Shown here: positions 23,524 through 27,800 of the stretch, in pieces | Layout of the letters: each line of letters starts with the position of its first letter | Numbering within the stretch: the first letter of the stretch is position 1 | From: an uncultured bacterium | GTDB lineage: Bacteria; Hydrogenedentota; Hydrogenedentia; Hydrogenedentales; JAEUWI01 | DNA: 40,988 bases | NCBI GenBank assembly: GCA_963977445.1 | Contig: CAXBPH010000026.1 | Coordinates: forward strand, 1-40,988 | Reading direction: 5' to 3' | Made by a program: the position numbers and the translations under genes | The notes under the pieces: model-generated | Told to the model about the DNA's origin: nothing | Database searches by the model: none | The model's input: only the letters and a program-made list of their open reading frames with translations

Positions 23524-24852
23524 CTACGGTATGAGTCGCGGGGCAGCCAATCCGGCTTCTTCATCCGATTTTGGGGTGGGTTGCACCGTTGAGGGCACAA
23601 AGCGTGTGGAAGCCCCCCGGCTGCTGTTTCCCGCAAGATCGGTGGCGACCCCTCCGTCCAGCCGGAGTTCTACCCGACCTTTTCCAGAGGGTGTTATCAA
23701 GAATCGGTAGTGCGTATCCCCATCGGTGCCAGAAGTACGCACCCTATGGCCTCCAGACACCTTCACGGCGCTATCTTCGAAACCATACACGGGCTCGGAA
23801 AAGATTATGTCCACCGGAATCGCCCCCGTGTCGGTACGATACAAAAGCACATCAAATCGGGGGCTTGGGCGGCTACGGTCTATTTCCCGAATCAACACCT
23901 CCGACGGGCTGTTTAAGTTACCGATTACGTCTCTGGCGACACCCGCCGGGATCGACACCTGGACGAGACCCTCAGAGGGCTTCACGTCGAAGAGATAGTT
24001 CAGCCCATCCTCACGGCCGGTGAAATTCAACAGGGACCCGCCGCGCACGAGCACATCGGACTTTTCAAAATCGTATACCGGCTCGTTAAATACCGCATGG
24101 ACACGCATGACCCAGCTGTTGCTCTCCCGGGGGGTCTCAAAGGCCTCCAGGGCCACTTCCGGGCCCGTGCTGTCGATGATAAGCGAAAAGACCGGAGAGG
24201 CCACGTTGCCGTTCCCTACGGCGTCGACGACCGCATCTTCGGGCACGGTTAATGCCGTCGTCCCGTCGGACTTGGGCGTCACGACGAAATGATACTGGGT
24301 ATCACCATCGTTGCCCCCTACCCGGGCCAGGGTGGCATTCTCAACGGACAGGGCATCGTCGCGCAAACCGTAGACCGGCTCGGAAAATACGAGCGCTATG
24401 GCCATCCGGGCATCATTCATGACGCCTTCCTGGTCGCTCTTTATGATGCACTGGGGACGCGTAGCATCGAGATGGACCACCCCATCATCGCTGTTCGATT
24501 CGAAGTTTACATTGCCAAAGGTGTCTGCCGTCAATTCCGCCGGTATGGCCAGGGCGATGGTGCCATCTTCCTCAACGGATCGCACGGTCAGCCGATAGTT
24601 CGCCTTCTCTCCTGTGGTCTCATAGTGGAGGCCTGCGGCCGTACCAGTGAACACGACACCGCCCACATTGATGCCGATTGGAAAATCTACGACGGGTTGG
24701 TCGAAGACGATGTCCAGAACGATGGGCAACGCGTTGGTATGCAGCGGTTGGCCTTCCGAACGACGGACGACAACATGAGGACGGCTGAACTGGTTCAGGA
24801 TACTGGGATTGGCGAGCCGCTGGTCGCCCGCCAAGGCGGGCGACTGGGTCAT
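23524..24852 (-). CDS. Four tandem bacterial Ig-like repeats; probably the frameshifted C-terminal extension of TssM
   Basis: Repeats FDQPVVDF / FSEPVYGL / FNEPVYDF / FSEPVYGF, each closing with D..GN...S. No signal peptide and no clear RBS. The frame is open upstream to 24927, inside the A10 tract of tssM. Confidence 0.8.
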   Translation of the reverse strand: MTQSPALAGDQRLANPSILNQFSRPHVVVRRSEGQPLHTNALPIVLDIVFDQPVVDFPIGINVGGVVFTGTAAGLHYETTGEKANYRLTVRSVEEDGTIALAIPAELTADTFGNVNFESNSDDGVVHLDATRPQCIIKSDQEGVMNDARMAIALVFSEPVYGLRDDALSVENATLARVGGNDGDTQYHFVVTPKSDGTTALTVPEDAVVDAVGNGNVASPVFSLIIDSTGPEVALEAFETPRESNSWVMRVHAVFNEPVYDFEKSDVLVRGGSLLNFTGREDGLNYLFDVKPSEGLVQVSIPAGVARDVIGNLNSPSEVLIREIDRSRPSPRFDVLLYRTDTGAIPVDIIFSEPVYGFEDSAVKVSGGHRVRTSGTDGDTHYRFLITPSGKGRVELRLDGGVATDLAGNSSRGASTRFVPSTVQPTPKSDEEAGLAAPRLIP

Positions 24853-24869
24853 CTTAACTTCGGTCAGCG

Positions 24870-27800
24870 TCAGCGACGGCCCCGAGGATTCGCCCGTTGT
24901 GTCACCGGTGATGGGCTCGTTTTTTTTTTACTCTTTACCGCTTCATAGCCACCACCTTCGGTTACCGAATAGGCGTTGGAAACGGGATCCTGATTCAATT
25001 TGGGCGGCTCGGTGCCCACAATGGCATTGCCACCTGGCGGGGTGGGTCCTGCTGTTGCCGGTCGCGGTGTGTCGAACGTGACTTCTGTCGTGTAGAGGGG
25101 GCGCTCGGGTGCCGGCACTACGGGCGGATTACGCTTTACGGTCGCAGGCTCCACAACCGGTACCTGCGGTGCTACGGGCCGTGCGGTCTCCACCGGTACC
25201 ACGGGTGATGGGGGCTTGGGAATTTCCACCGGTGGCGGCGTCATCACCGGCATCTGTGCAGGCGCATAGGCACGGTCAGACGGTGAATAGCCCGAAACGG
25301 GGCGTTCTGCGGGTCGGGGCGCCTGATAAATGGTCTCGGCACGTTGCCCCCCTGCGGGCGAATAGAGCCGCGTCCGTGTGACCTGCGGAGGTACCGTCGA
25401 AGGCGCGGGCTCTGCCGCGTAGGTTTCGGGGGCGTCTGCGGGCAGGGCGGGCGCGTAGATGTAGTCGTCATCGCTACCCAGTGCGGCAGACGGTGAAACG
25501 GGGGCCGGTGCCATGGGCGCAGGTGCATAGGGGGGCGCGACGCCCGTGGCCGGAGCCGGGGCGCTGTTTACCTGCTTAATCTTCTCGCTGACCCGATCCA
25601 TGGTGGCATTGGTCTGTACCGGTTCCACGGCAGCCACGTCCCGCTGCAGCGGTAAGAGAGGCGCTTCGGGATAGACCTGACCTTCGGTGCTCTCGTCATC
25701 GGGGAAGGCACCGCCCAGATCACGTGGACTCCGACGAAGGTGGGGCCAATTGGAGGGCGAGGGCCATGCCTTCAGATCTGGGATCTCTTTGTTAAACTTG
25801 AAACCAAGCCAATAGAAGTATTCGCTATCCTTGTGCTCGGCGTTGTCTACCACACGGAAAGGCACGGCACAGGTGACCTTGTCATCCAGGACCACGGAAT
25901 CTCCCATGTGGAGCACCACGAGGGGAAGCCAGTCCATTTCCAATCCGGCCACCCCACTCGGGCGGGCAAAGGAATTGACACCAGGGTTCAAATCTTCCGA
26001 CGTGTAGTAGAAGTGGATGGCGAGTTGGCTGGCATCGGGTGCCATGGGATAGGTCTTGCCTTCATGGCCGACGACGTAAGTCGTTGGCTCGGTGTTGAAG
26101 GCCGTTCCATTGATACGCATATAGCGGTAGACCCACGTAGCATCACCGAAGACCTTGCTGGTCGGGCGGGGTGCCGGGAAGCGTGGCGGCCGAATCGACT
26201 GGGTTTCACGAGGCAATACCACCAGTTCACAGGTAAGCGGCTCATCTCCTTCGATGAACTCCATGACCTTTACCAACTGGTCAAACCAGTCACGCTCATA
26301 TTCGGTGCGCAACACTTTTCCACCCTGGAGGCGGTCGATCTCTTTGTCCACATCCGGCCAGCCGGTGCGGTCCCCGCCCATCATGGTGTCGGGGTTCTCT
26401 TCTTTCGGCCCTTGTTTGATATGGCGCACGAGTTCCAACGCTTCGTCAAAGCTTTCGGGCGACAGTGCCGGTGTAGCAATATCATTGATAAGCGGAAAGC
26501 CGCGATAGCGTGTGGCAAGATTGGTGAGATAGTAGCGGGAAAGGTGCTCACCCTCGTCGGCAAGCAAACGTACCGCCTGGGTGCACAAGCTGTTCCAGAA
26601 GCCGAAGTTGGCCTTATTTACGTTGTTATCCAGGAGGGAGAGATACGCTGCCTTGAAGTCCGAGGCCGACATGATCAGCACCTCGTTCATCACAACCCGA
26701 TCTACGTTCTCAATCGCTTTCCAGGCATCGAGAACCCGTAGACATTCGGCGTCAAACTCTTCGGTAAGGCCTTTCATCTTCAAGGAAATATCGAGTTGGG
26801 CCTCCGTCTGACCCGGGTGGGTCGAAGGAACAATACCGATGGCGTAGAGTGCCGTCTCGAAGAGAATACGCAGCTTGTGGTTGACGTTGTACACCTCAAG
26901 CTGGTTGAGCTCGTTGTGAAACTCTTTCCACGTGGCAAACTGAACCATTTCCGTGTTTTGATCCACGGTACGGGTCCAGTAATTTACATATTCGGTCAGG
27001 TATTGCTTGAAGACCTGATCTTTTTCCTTGAAACTGCGCTTGAGCCGCTCCACATCCGGCAGGCTGTCTTTGCCCAGACGTTCCTGACGCAGGATGTCGT
27101 CCATATGGTCCCAGAGCGTTAGCAGATCGTAAACGACTTCGGTGTTGAAGCCATCGTCGAACTGGTGAATATCGCCGTCGGGCGTGAGGGGAATTTCCGG
27201 CCGCTCCAGCCACTGGGCCTCCACGCGGGAAGAAACCATGCGCGCAAAGTCACCCGTGGTGATGGGCAGGGCCTGCACGATCTGTTCTACGACTTTGTAA
27301 CGCTGCTGACGATAGATGAGGTTAAGCATCTTGTCTGCCGCTTCCCGACCGCTATTGAAGCTGTCGGAATTGGTATCGAATCCAGAAATATCGCGAACGC
27401 TCTCGTCGAACGCCTTCTGAAGCTCTTCCAGGTCCAAGAGATAGTCGAAGGGGTCGTAGATATCTTCGCCAACTACGTATTCGGATGACTGGAGGAACCC
27501 GTATACGTGGGTGCGCAATTGGTACCGACGAAAATCCTGGTACTCCGTCATGTGGAGATATTCGTTATCTGCACGGAGCCCGTCGAAATCGGCAAGGTAC
27601 TTAGCGACCTCGGTCTTAATCATTTCCTTGCTGGCGGCCAGATGGGCGGTGAGGGTCTGCTTCACATCTTCGATATGGTGCTTCGCCGTTTCGTCCGCTG
27701 GTTTTTCGAGCACATTGGCGAGTTCTTTTTCGAGTACGTAATACTGGCTCTCCATGTATTCCGTCACCTGTATACGACGGCTGTCACAAAGCTGAACTAC

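Follow-up and report, generated by a model that had tools for sequence, protein, structure and literature searches.

The Citrobacter rodentium gene tssM1 contains an A11 run at which about 20% frameshifting by transcriptional slippage has been described, both resulting forms being needed and their ratio being important (Gueguen et al. 2014, PMC4256274). This account agrees with the precedent invoked in a preliminary description of the locus analyzed here, namely poly-A slippage that yields two TssM lengths and rescues an interrupted core. The A9 run in tssM3 of Y. pseudotuberculosis is described to slip as well, and in the survey by Gueguen et al. 2014, poly-A runs in tssM were confined to those genes (PMC4256274); a similar tract has been described in icmF of the Enterobacter cancerogenus T6SS-C (PMC10797944). 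A full-text literature search for slippage or frameshifting in tssM retrieved enterobacterial cases only.

Two other groups of recoded genes are relevant for comparison. Frameshifting adds C-terminal Ig-like domains to coat or tail proteins of phages, as in T3 gene 10, Lactobacillus phage A2 and the Listeria phages A118, A500 and PSA (Fraser et al. 2006, via Atkins et al. 2016, PMC5009743), and the tau and gamma products of dnaX are reported to arise by transcriptional slippage at an A9 run in Thermus thermophilus and an A10 run in a further cluster of bacteria (Antonov et al. 2013, PMC3711429). That study names homopolymers of at least 8 as typical for transcriptional realignment (PMC3711429), and reported slippage efficiencies in reporters are 63% for A11, 40% for A9 and 10% for A7.

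Here we analyze a tssM gene in a 40,988-base stretch of DNA (the window, to which all window coordinates refer) in which an A10 run lies at the junction with a -1 frame ORF that encodes Ig-like domains. Judging from the gene and protein sequences, this run most likely lets part of the TssM gain an Ig-like arm. As described for C. rodentium and Y. pseudotuberculosis, the gene belongs to the tssM family, a tract in the A9-A11 range is phased as Lys codons near a stop, and two product lengths per gene would result. However, the C. rodentium tract is located at about residue 800, inside the core, compared with residue 1736 here, past the core and a linker, and the sites are non-homologous. The short form in C. 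rodentium is described as lacking the essential TssJ-binding C-terminal domain, so that recoding rescues the canonical protein, whereas here recoding would add an accessory Ig module; the frame change is described as +1 in C. rodentium, that is, of the opposite sign; and the lineages differ, Enterobacterales in one case and an uncultured phylum in the other. In common with the phage cases, as reviewed, a fraction of the subunits of a multimer would gain a C-terminal Ig-like domain by recoding, the Ig domain would possess neither its own start nor its own export signal, and the assembly would be mixed. The phage examples, in contrast, are reported as ribosomal frameshifts in virion proteins, whereas the protein in question is a T6SS membrane-anchoring subunit that is not phage-derived, in which a long Pro-rich tether would carry four domains and the homopolymer has the length needed for polymerase slippage. 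As in the reported dnaX cases, an A9-A10 tract shows nucleotide-level conservation between species, and two products in a set ratio would enter a multi-subunit complex; the recoded product is the shorter one in dnaX and would be the longer one in TssM, and the proteins are unrelated.

Organization of the tssM-Ig junction

The comparison set consisted of six related loci out of 102 pattern matches. One of the contigs (L004) ends short of the junction, and the junction counts refer to the window and five loci (L001, L002, L003, L005 and L006), all from Candidatus Hydrogenedentota. The TssM identity of these five genomes is 61-76%, and they represent, together with the window, only about 4-5 independent DNA lineages, L005 and L006 being close to each other and L002 and L003 being 93% identical in protein. 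In the T6SS context, tssC (partial), hcp, tssE, tssF, tssG, vgrG, two unknown ORFs, tssK, dotU/tssL and tssM are encoded on the same strand; no TssJ was recognised in the cluster in Pfam and NCBIfam profile searches. The features of the junction region are the following:

24870..30134, minus strand: tssM, 0-frame ORF, 1754 aa, TTG start as listed (ORF list and translation)
24930..25712, minus strand: Pro/Ala-rich linker, TssM aa ~1475-1735, after the core end near ...NWPHLRR (composition, conservation)
25074..25121, minus strand: motif VVPAPERPLYTTEVTF, aa 1672-1687, within the linker (alignment)
24919..24930, minus strand: T-A10-C, proposed slippery site, with A10 at 24929..24920 (direct reading)
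24870..24920, minus strand: 0-frame tail TSPSPVTQRANPRGRR and stop, the end of the short TssM (translation)
24877..24884, minus strand: 8-mer CGGGGCCG in the two-frame overlap, R-G-R in the 0 frame and S/P-G-P in the -1 frame (alignment)
23524..24927, minus strand: -1 frame ORF, 467 codons and stop, opening inside A10 and beginning KKNEPITGDTTGESSGPSLTLTEVKM... (translation)
24778..24819, minus strand: motif RLxNPxxLNQ(F/Y)xRP, start of the first Ig domain (ortholog alignment)
23593..24780, minus strand: four predicted Ig-like (Big_12) beta-sandwich domains, 24780..24463, 24456..24172, 24162..23881 and 23868..23593 (AlphaFold model)
23533..23547, minus strand: C-terminal motif (A/S)AP(P/R)L, ending within a few residues of the Ig ORF terminus (alignment)

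The N-terminal portion of TssM contains two TM helices (segments at ~aa 14-64, by hydropathy), a Walker A motif (GEKGCGKS, aa 128-135), a match to Pfam IcmF-related_N (PF14331; E=1.1e-44, aa 189-453) and a third TM helix (aa 443-470), followed by a periplasmic part of roughly 1000 aa. The NCBIfam TssM model TIGR03348 aligns to aa 49-472 only (223 bits, under the cutoff of 388), and past the N-domain, no Pfam match to PF06761 or PF06744 (the periplasmic ImcF-related and IcmF_C domains, which bind TssJ) was detected; the periplasmic part is a divergent form common to Hydrogenedentota relatives. The core looks complete without the additional module because two distant TssM relatives (P0012 and P0013, 1481 and 1527 aa) terminate where the core ends. 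The linker that follows contains 12-28% P and 8-24% A per 50-aa block and is poorly conserved apart from the VVPAPERPLYTTEVTF motif, which is nearly invariant (7 of 7 TssM proteins and 6 of 6 DNA-derived sequences). In the window, the short form ends with a basic tail of 16 aa after K1738, and the tails are comparable in every relative, extending 15-21 aa past KKK to R-rich ends, including all six full-length protein relatives (1735-1762 aa).

The minus strand across the junction reads ...GAG T AAAAAAAAAA CGA..., with the 0-frame codons AGT AAA AAA AAA ACG over the run (S1735, K1736-K1738 and T1739). The T before the run is the first base of a -1 frame TAA (24930-24928), after which this frame is open to 23524; in the six sequences, the 0-frame tail measures 15-20 aa past KKK and the third frame contains stops 5-13 codons past KKK. 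No homopolymer longer than the A10 run occurs in the window or in any of the five loci that hold it, and the pattern goes beyond chance.

In each of the six sequences, the -1 frame becomes open at the run and extends for 381-467 codons (464, 467, 466, 381 and 381 in the five loci), with 47-62% identity across loci and no internal stops. Pfam Big_12 (PF19078) matches the window ORF in 3 stretches (E=9.8e-37, 125.7 bits against a cutoff of 27), and the AlphaFold2 model (mean pLDDT 75; ~80-89 inside the domains) contains four beta domains, at residues ~50-155, 158-252, 256-349 and 354-445, for which the Foldseek matches, at low TM scores, are adhesin and S-layer structures with tandem Ig-like domains. 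Residues 1-45 are predicted to be disordered, like the linker, and a short tail follows the fourth domain; the Ig ORF would continue the Pro/Ala-rich periplasmic linker of TssM. The (A/S)AP(P/R)L motif near the C-terminus is present in all 19 ortholog clusters and the five loci, in both 3-domain and 4-domain forms.

The listed ORF of 442 aa begins at ATG 24852, 17 nt past the tssM stop, and the window and L001-L003 possess an ATG or GTG at a distance of 23-31 codons in the -1 frame, at which some independent or coupled initiation may take place. The earliest ATG, GTG or TTG of L005 and L006 is at codon 55 and 54, respectively, inside the first Ig domain and downstream of RLxNPxxLNQ(F/Y)xRP. 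The called starts in the 19 ortholog clusters occupy no fewer than 9 different alignment columns, and 9 of the 19 called ORFs (two of which begin with V, and some of which may be contig-end partials) drop this conserved N-terminal motif. By comparison, the gene that comes next, encoding a protein of 113 aa, retains its ATG in every one of the six sequences. There is no hydrophobic segment or signal peptide in the Ig ORF (Kyte-Doolittle 19-aa maximum of 1.39) and no GGAGG-like sequence within 20 nt before ATG 24852.

Most of this anatomy had been anticipated in the preliminary description. The position of the A10 run, the AGT AAA AAA AAA ACG reading and the stop 16 codons on were correct base for base; the -1 frame TAA at 24930-24928 and the opening inside A10 are matched by direct reading; and the arithmetic for the long form (1738+465 = 2203 aa) is right. 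The four Ig-like domains noted there are borne out by the Big_12 match and the model, the absence of a signal peptide and of a convincing RBS agrees with the hydropathy and the sequence before ATG 24852, and the view of TssM as apparently complete is in line with the shared core end of P0012 and P0013.

Conservation of the T-A10-C block

T-A10-C occurs without deviation in the window and in the related genomes that reach the junction (5 of 5); its 12 columns form the longest stretch of invariance when the junctions of the six sequences are aligned. The synonymous sites are otherwise saturated: third-position identity at identical residues is 0.47-0.58 between lineages (0.79 for L005/L006), and the third base is kept in 122 of the 907 invariant-residue columns of the six tssM genes. 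Among the 43 invariant Lys columns, 5 are all-AAA in the six sequences, and because 3 of these are the run itself, the all-AAA background is 2/40; AAG is more common than AAA in every tssM. The run is preceded by a wobble T that never changes although its codon does (AGT, CGT, GCT, GCT, ATT and AGT), and the C-ending synonyms are preferred or approximately equal in usage (for example, ATT:ATC of 34:31 in the window and AGT:AGC of 17:17 in L003). Thus, the tract is conserved among the orthologs more than the protein sequence demands. Indels between the run and the Ig domains among the six sequences are 3, 6 or 9 nt long, and the -1 frame relation is kept. The CGGGGCCG 8-mer in the two-frame overlap is invariant in all six sequences as well.

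The check for a conserved A-run and split in related genomes that the preliminary description had proposed accordingly gave a positive result, with T-A10-C, the split and the -1 relation found in 5 of 5. A point against the proposal is that in four protein-only relatives (P0007-P0010), KKK is followed by L or A, and therefore the tenth A is absent, the run being perhaps A9 or otherwise built.

Alternative explanations of the split

One alternative reading of the locus is that of two ordinary neighboring genes, with the Ig protein initiated at ATG 24852 or its equivalent, perhaps by translational coupling, and KKK conserved as protein. The ATG 17 nt past the tssM stop, the ATG or GTG at codons 23-31 in L001-L003 and the separate ORFs of 304-451 aa in the gene-caller output are what this explanation predicts, but we consider it highly improbable: protein constraint cannot account for the nucleotide conservation of the three AAA codons and the flanking T, L005 and L006 lack a canonical start ahead of codons 54/55, inside the first domain, the called starts are scattered and cut off the conserved motif in 9 of 19 cases, ATG 24852 lacks a GGAGG-like sequence, and the -1 relation survives the 3-, 6- and 9-nt indels. 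Ig-like domains are normally extracytoplasmic, and a separately made Ig protein would stay in the cytoplasm for lack of a signal peptide or TM segment in the ORF. The succession of linker and Ig domains looks like a single gene, and homopolymers are the classic site of indel errors, which would be compatible with a miscalled fused gene or with a recent frameshift that created a pseudogene. We give hardly any credence to either, given that 6 of 6 assemblies, produced by various projects and assemblers (k141, NODE and chromosome-level records), show the split, as do protein sets of four origins, and that the Ig ORF is intact and conserved (47-62% identity and no stops over 381-467 codons), which would be unexpected of a dead gene across such divergence. 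The assembly error that the preliminary description had kept as an alternative is thus excluded by the presence of T-A10-C and the split in 5 of 5 related genomes. Heritable phase variation, whereby replication slippage would toggle the tract between A10 (arm OFF) and A11 (ON) so that subpopulations differ by genotype, has in its favor that DNA polymerase also slips on such homopolymers and that surface and secretory proteins are described as typical phase-variable genes; as in contingency loci of this kind, a homopolymer lies at the frame junction of a probably surface-directed module. Unlike in such loci, the tract length is constant in 6 genomes and the ON (fused) allele was not seen: A10 is present in 6 of 6 DNA sequences, the split state in 6 of 6 full-length protein relatives, all 34 TssM matches (search range 964-3070 aa) are no longer than 1762 aa and without Big_12, and the TssM N-domain is absent from all 108 longer Big_12 matches (819-2335 aa). 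If switching were frequent, the ON state would be expected in part of the consensus assemblies, and we therefore regard phase variation as very unlikely.

Programmed -1 ribosomal frameshifting would yield the same two products from an mRNA that stays A10. Besides a slippery heptamer, such sites are characterized by a conserved stimulatory RNA structure 5-9 nt downstream or by an upstream Shine-Dalgarno-like element. The 0-frame phasing AAA AAA AAA supplies the canonical X_XXY_YYZ heptamer in the form of A_AAA_AAA, which is described as a bacterial shift site, and in L001, L002 and L003 a fairly stable hairpin begins 2-6 nt past the run, in the 1st-4th percentile of the gene background. However, the structure after the run is ordinary in the window, L005 and L006 (percentiles 0.32-0.37), the consensus fold is weak (-8.3 kcal/mol), the z-scores against shuffles (0.64, 0.03, -1.60 and -0.04) lack significance, an upstream Shine-Dalgarno-like element is not conserved in the junction alignment, and the heptamer requires seven A, yet all ten, together with the flanking T and C, are invariant. 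No stimulatory RNA structure after the run is consistent across the sequences, and Rfam yielded no match; for these reasons, polymerase slippage fits better, and ribosomal frameshifting appears rather unlikely. The A10 run also exceeds the length of approximately 8 A/T in the coding strand given for transcriptional realignment (PMC3711429).

Proposed production of an Ig-armed TssM

On balance, we consider it probable that the A10 run serves as a conserved site of programmed recoding that gives rise to short and long TssM, most plausibly via transcriptional slippage. The comparison (the recurring split, the lack of a fused form and of a conserved start) strongly supports the earlier suggestion that a slippery A10 would add an optional Ig module; the slippage itself, its mechanism and the joint assembly of both forms we infer from sequence. 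Under this scenario, standard decoding would produce the 1754-aa TssM, with three TM helices, a cytoplasmic NTPase domain, the periplasmic core, the ~260-aa linker and the 16-aa basic tail, whereas RNA polymerase slipping on the T10 template would introduce one extra A into some of the mRNA. From K1738, reading would then pass into the -1 frame, resulting in a TssM of ~2203 aa in which the linker is followed by four Ig-like domains. By comparison with A9-A11 tracts in the literature, the slippage rate could be expected to be in the tens of percent. Given that the TssM C-terminus is periplasmic, the Ig arm would be exported with TssM and would not need a signal peptide of its own, and for the multimeric membrane complex the cell would have plain and Ig-armed TssM subunits mixed in a set proportion.

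A more far-reaching, speculative version, which as a whole is unlikely to hold, is that slippage sets a fixed ratio of plain to armed TssM, that the tether of ~300 Pro-rich residues is of sufficient length to cross the outer membrane, and that the arm is a surface feeler or adhesin linking target contact to the firing site, making this a second independent poly-A recoding of tssM and a cellular counterpart of the phage Ig decorations. If it does extend to the surface of the cell, the arm would represent a T6SS accessory of a new kind, relevant to the aim of firing.

Full-text literature searches found no paper on T6SS in Hydrogenedentes and none on TssM with an Ig-like C-terminal extension. 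As far as the reports cited here go, tssM recoding has until now been described in a single enterobacterial lineage, in which it restores a core gene that is interrupted. The present case would represent the same trick, independently arisen at another site in a deeply branching uncultured phylum, with an optional accessory arm rather than the rescue of an essential domain, and would connect slippage in secretion genes with the frameshift-added Ig decorations of phage structures. Gene callers split such loci into TssM and a 'hypothetical Ig-like protein' with arbitrary starts, and the T-A10-C signature would allow the two to be joined.

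The tssM gene and the A10 tract at its 3' end

The gene of the type VI secretion (T6SS) membrane complex that contains the tract is located as follows:

30134..24870, minus strand, tssM, encoding a protein of 1754 aa

This gene lies at the end of a T6SS cluster, all on the same strand, in the order tssC (truncated at the edge of the window), hcp, tssE, tssF, tssG, vgrG, a pair of ORFs lacking family matches, tssK, dotU/tssL and tssM. The two ORFs between vgrG and tssK (32605..33312 and 33444..33986, minus strand) encode proteins of 235 and 180 aa, respectively, without a match in Pfam or NCBIfam.

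Judging from its sequence, the TssM protein of the window is divergent. Pfam detects the IcmF-related N-terminal domain only (E=1.1e-44), and the NCBIfam TssM model aligned with residues 49-472 alone, with a score below the cutoff. The hydropathy profile contains two N-terminal helices and a third one at 443-470, and, by the established topology, the protein beyond residue 470 would be periplasmic. The domains that usually bind TssJ are missing from the periplasmic part of TssM, and none of the cluster genes was recognised as tssJ; this T6SS may therefore differ in how its outer-membrane end is built. Delineated by composition, conservation and the end points of distant relatives, the conserved part of TssM stops near residue 1470, where distant relatives of 1481 and 1527 aa end as well. 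It is followed by a Pro/Ala-rich linker (approximately residues 1475-1735, with 12-28% Pro per 50 residues) that shows low conservation except for a single motif. This motif, VVPAPERPLYTTEVTF (16 residues, aa 1672-1687; 25074..25121, minus strand), is located in the middle of the linker and is almost invariant, being present in all relatives. An AlphaFold2 model of the last 480 residues of TssM, produced from a 6-row alignment, had a mean pLDDT of 36, too poor to inform on the core boundary or the structure of the linker motif.

The preliminary description proposed that slippage on a run of ten A could switch TssM between the 1754-aa form and a form of about 2203 aa with Ig-like domains; the anatomy of the run and of the -1 frame that it reported is confirmed by the window sequence. 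The 3' end of tssM reads AGT AAA AAA AAA ACG, with the run at 24929..24920, and the 0 frame stops 16 codons past the third Lys. The -1 frame contains a TAA at 24930-24928 that overlaps the start of the run and then remains open for 467 codons, to 23524 (this open stretch is hereinafter the Ig ORF); the first ATG in this frame, at 24852, yields the 442-aa ORF of the ORF listing. One extra A in the mRNA, or slippage of the ribosome by -1 on the run, would link residues 1-1738 to 465 more, and reading of the frames accordingly yields the originally proposed length of 2203 aa. Neither the window nor any of the 5 related loci that hold the run contains a longer homopolymer. A promoter and terminator scan of 22900..25400 gave site counts not above those in shuffles and, for the minus strand, found no promoter-like site separating the Ig ORF from tssM. 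A terminator-like match at 24892..24916 (plus strand) was rejected, being merely the reverse complement of the A10 run and an adjacent weak hairpin; it terminates no plus-strand gene.

Conservation of the junction among relatives

A scan of species-representative genomes yielded six loci, five of which are titled Candidatus Hydrogenedentota or Hydrogenedentales MAGs, whereas L005 carries the record title 'metagenome genome assembly, chromosome: 1'. The contig of L004 stops short of the junction, and the junction DNA comparison consists of the window and five loci, which represent about four to five independent lineages. Related genomes had been suggested as a check on the run and the split, and the exact T-A10-C sequence is indeed found at the homologous place in all five loci that reach the junction. 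In each of these, the 0 frame encodes KKK followed by 15-20 codons and a stop, the third frame is closed 5-13 codons past KKK, and the -1 frame contains a TAA on the first bases of the run followed by 464, 467, 466, 381 and 381 open codons. The five -1 frame ORFs align with the window Ig ORF throughout (47-62% identity); L005 and L006 have three Ig domains, and the other four sequences have four. From the run to the Ig domains, the sequences differ by indels of 3, 6 and 9 nt, so that the frame relation is kept.

The conservation of T-A10-C, the longest invariant block of the junction alignment, exceeds the protein-level constraint because synonymous sites have diverged, yet the three AAA codons and the preceding T are invariant. 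Third-position identity at identical residues is 0.47-0.53 between the main lineages (0.58 for L002/L003 and 0.79 for L005/L006), and the third base is kept in all six sequences in 122 of the 907 invariant-residue columns. In each tssM, AAG is the more common Lys codon (AAA:AAG from 33:46 to 17:71), and only 5 of the 43 invariant Lys columns are AAA in all six sequences, three of these being the run (background, 2/40). A T precedes the run in 6/6 sequences (codons AGT, CGT, GCT, GCT, ATT and AGT), with the C-ending synonyms mostly preferred; the exceptions are ATT:ATC in the window (34:31) and AGT:AGC in L003 (17:17). This T, at window position 24930 (minus strand) and its counterparts in L001-L003, L005 and L006, is a wobble base in codons for S, R, A, A, I and S. 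It also forms the TAA by which the -1 frame is closed; upstream, that frame is otherwise open for 68-142 codons in L002, L003 and L005. The wobble T may serve the slippage signal or the stop.

An 8-mer, CGGGGCCG (window 24877..24884, minus strand), located 36-45 nt past the run, is invariant in 6/6 sequences, including three wobble positions of the -1 frame, and sits in the overlap of the two frames, where it contributes R-G-R to the 0-frame tail and S/P-G-P to the -1 frame. In the 50-70 nt overlap past the run, conservation is poor in either frame over the first 12 codons or so and then holds for both at the 8-mer, a stretch too short to tell which frame is conserved. Both frames could be constrained at the 8-mer, so that the basic tail of the short form may matter, or the 8-mer could be a nucleotide-level element.

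The protein databases present a compatible picture at the end of TssM. All six close full-length relatives (61-77% identity, 1735-1762 aa) end with KKK and 15-21 poorly conserved, Arg-rich residues, and K1736-K1738 are invariant across the 7-sequence alignment in variable surroundings. In four relatives represented by protein sequence alone (P0007-P0010), a Leu or Ala follows KKK; their tract therefore lacks the tenth A and may be A9. A TssM search over the length range of 964-3070 aa gave 34 matches, none longer than 1762 aa and none with Big_12. When longer proteins (819-2335 aa) were searched with the Ig ORF, 108 matches were obtained, none with the TssM N-domain, and the full-length ones shared only 24-35% identity. 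Hence no in-frame TssM-Ig fusion was found in the protein searches; the Ig ORF search is supporting evidence rather than proof, since true relatives may be displaced from such a listing by long repetitive proteins. A whole-library HMMER search with the Ig ORF was dominated by giant multi-repeat Big_12 proteins and was uninformative on fused TssM; among the best 150 matches listed, the sole orthologue was the window's own 442-aa cluster.

The Ig-like product and proposed recoding at the tract

The Ig ORF product matches Pfam Big_12 in three stretches (E=9.8e-37), and a structural model (mean pLDDT 75) based on six orthologues consists of disordered residues 1-45, four beta domains and a disordered tail. 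A structure search with this model retrieved the tandem Ig-like FdeC, invasin, SiiE, PrgB and S-layer proteins with low TM scores, as expected of a flexible domain string. A few residues before the C-terminus, every Ig orthologue (P0288-P0305) contains, after an acidic-Gly patch, the short sequence (A/S)AP(P/R)L (window 23533..23547, minus strand); this motif, which may be a docking or sorting signal, is kept whether there are three or four Ig domains. The Ig ORF is followed in all six loci, on its own strand, by a 113-aa ORF (window 23072..23413, minus strand; MGLRQRAKEAWE...) that has no family match beyond a weak, chance-level one in NCBIfam and is probably part of the same operon.

Several explanations other than recoding can be considered for this arrangement. 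An assembly error or a pseudogene would account for the split, but the same split is present in six assemblies of different projects and in protein sets of several sources, and the Ig ORF is intact across lineages of this divergence; we set this explanation aside, along with heritable phase variation of the tract, which would predict tract-length variants and some fused alleles, neither of which occurs among the 6 DNA sequences and 6 full-length protein relatives (all consensus sequences). The evidence also goes against the Ig ORF being a gene of its own because its start codon is not conserved and it has neither a GGAGG-like sequence nor an export signal. In L005 and L006, the first ATG/GTG/TTG of the -1 frame is codon 55 and 54, respectively, inside the first beta strand and past the conserved motif RLxNPxxLNQ(F/Y)xRP; in the window and L001-L003, ATG or GTG codons occur at codons 23-31, but their positions vary and they are not preceded by a GGAGG-like sequence. 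Among 19 orthologous Ig clusters from the protein database, the called starts spread over at least 9 alignment columns, and the conserved N-terminal motif is missing from the called protein in 9, although contig ends could have truncated some of these genes. The downstream neighbour (112-116 aa), by contrast, retains the same ATG and N-terminus in all six loci and so illustrates a genuine start in this group. The earlier statements that the Ig ORF has no signal peptide and no convincing RBS held up: hydropathy analysis found no hydrophobic segment for a signal peptide or anchor, and no GGAGG-like sequence lies upstream of the ATG at 24852. A cytoplasmic protein of four Ig-like domains would be unusual; as a continuation of the TssM linker, periplasmic by the established topology, the Ig arm would need no export signal.

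The comparative evidence supports the proposed recoding, which we infer to take place at the A10 run of tssM. Between the two routes, which would produce the same protein, RNA polymerase slippage is favoured because all ten A and both flanks are conserved, whereas the ribosomal heptamer A_AAA_AAA needs only seven; because transcriptional realignment is typically marked by runs of at least eight, with 40-63% recoding described for reporters with A9-A11 runs (PMC3711429); because slippage of this kind, at 15-25%, has been demonstrated for the A11 and A9 runs of two tssM genes (PMC4256274); and because there is no consistent stimulatory structure downstream of the run. A ten-base run would allow the nine-base-pair RNA-DNA hybrid, given its known length, to move one position without a mismatch. 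Ribosomal -1 slippage on A_AAA_AAA is less likely; a hairpin close to the run in L001-L003, the only loci with a low fold percentile against the gene background (1st-4th), would suit it. We claim no stimulatory element: RNAalifold on the six junctions yielded -8.3 kcal/mol with a positive covariation term, single-sequence folds past the run had z = 0.64, 0.03, -1.60 and -0.04, and Rfam gave 0 matches in 24600..25200 at E up to 1.

The closest case to polymerase slippage at this tract is C. rodentium tssM1, alongside Y. pseudotuberculosis tssM3 (PMC4256274) and, as reported in PMC10797944, E. cancerogenus; the enterobacterial cases share with the window the gene family and the poly-A signal. 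The position of the tract differs: the C. rodentium-type tract interrupts the core near residue 800, and recoding restores an essential domain (PMC4256274). The nearest functional analogy is the Ig-like extension that some of the coat or tail subunits of phages receive by frameshifting (PMC5009743). In the library searched, neither a T6SS of Hydrogenedentes nor an Ig-like extension of TssM was the subject of any paper, and searches for tssM combined with slippage or frameshifting returned the enterobacterial cases and citations of them only. The function of the Ig arm, the formation of mixed complexes and the slippage rate are matters of inference.

Other genes in the window

Additional genes in the window include the following:

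2671..9195, plus strand, a DUF4123 protein followed by 1374-aa and 454-aa ORFs without a Pfam match
10828..12555, a 575-aa PDZ/TPR protein, after the PKD protein
12586..16608, minus strand, a 1340-aa protein with eleven PKD domains (E=2e-180)
19662..22543, plus strand, a convergent pair encoding 222 aa, with a peptidoglycan-binding domain at the C-terminus, and 728 aa, partially matching Amidohydro_2
22619..22939, plus strand, a DDE_3 transposase fragment of 106 aa (E=6e-15), between the 113-aa ORF and the convergent 728-aa gene

The transposase fragment may be what remains of an insertion peculiar to this genome; at its place, the five related loci have no ORF of 100 aa or more, the ORFs of these loci having been compared by length rather than by Pfam. 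The convergent pair adjoins the cluster in L001-L003, the large gene alone is found in L005, and the L006 contig ends before the pair; these may be T6SS-associated cargo or accessory genes. The DUF4123 family is linked to T6SS effector loading, and the DUF4123 gene and the two ORFs after it, some 15 kb away from the cluster, form a candidate effector module. The PKD and PDZ/TPR proteins appear unrelated to the tssM finding.
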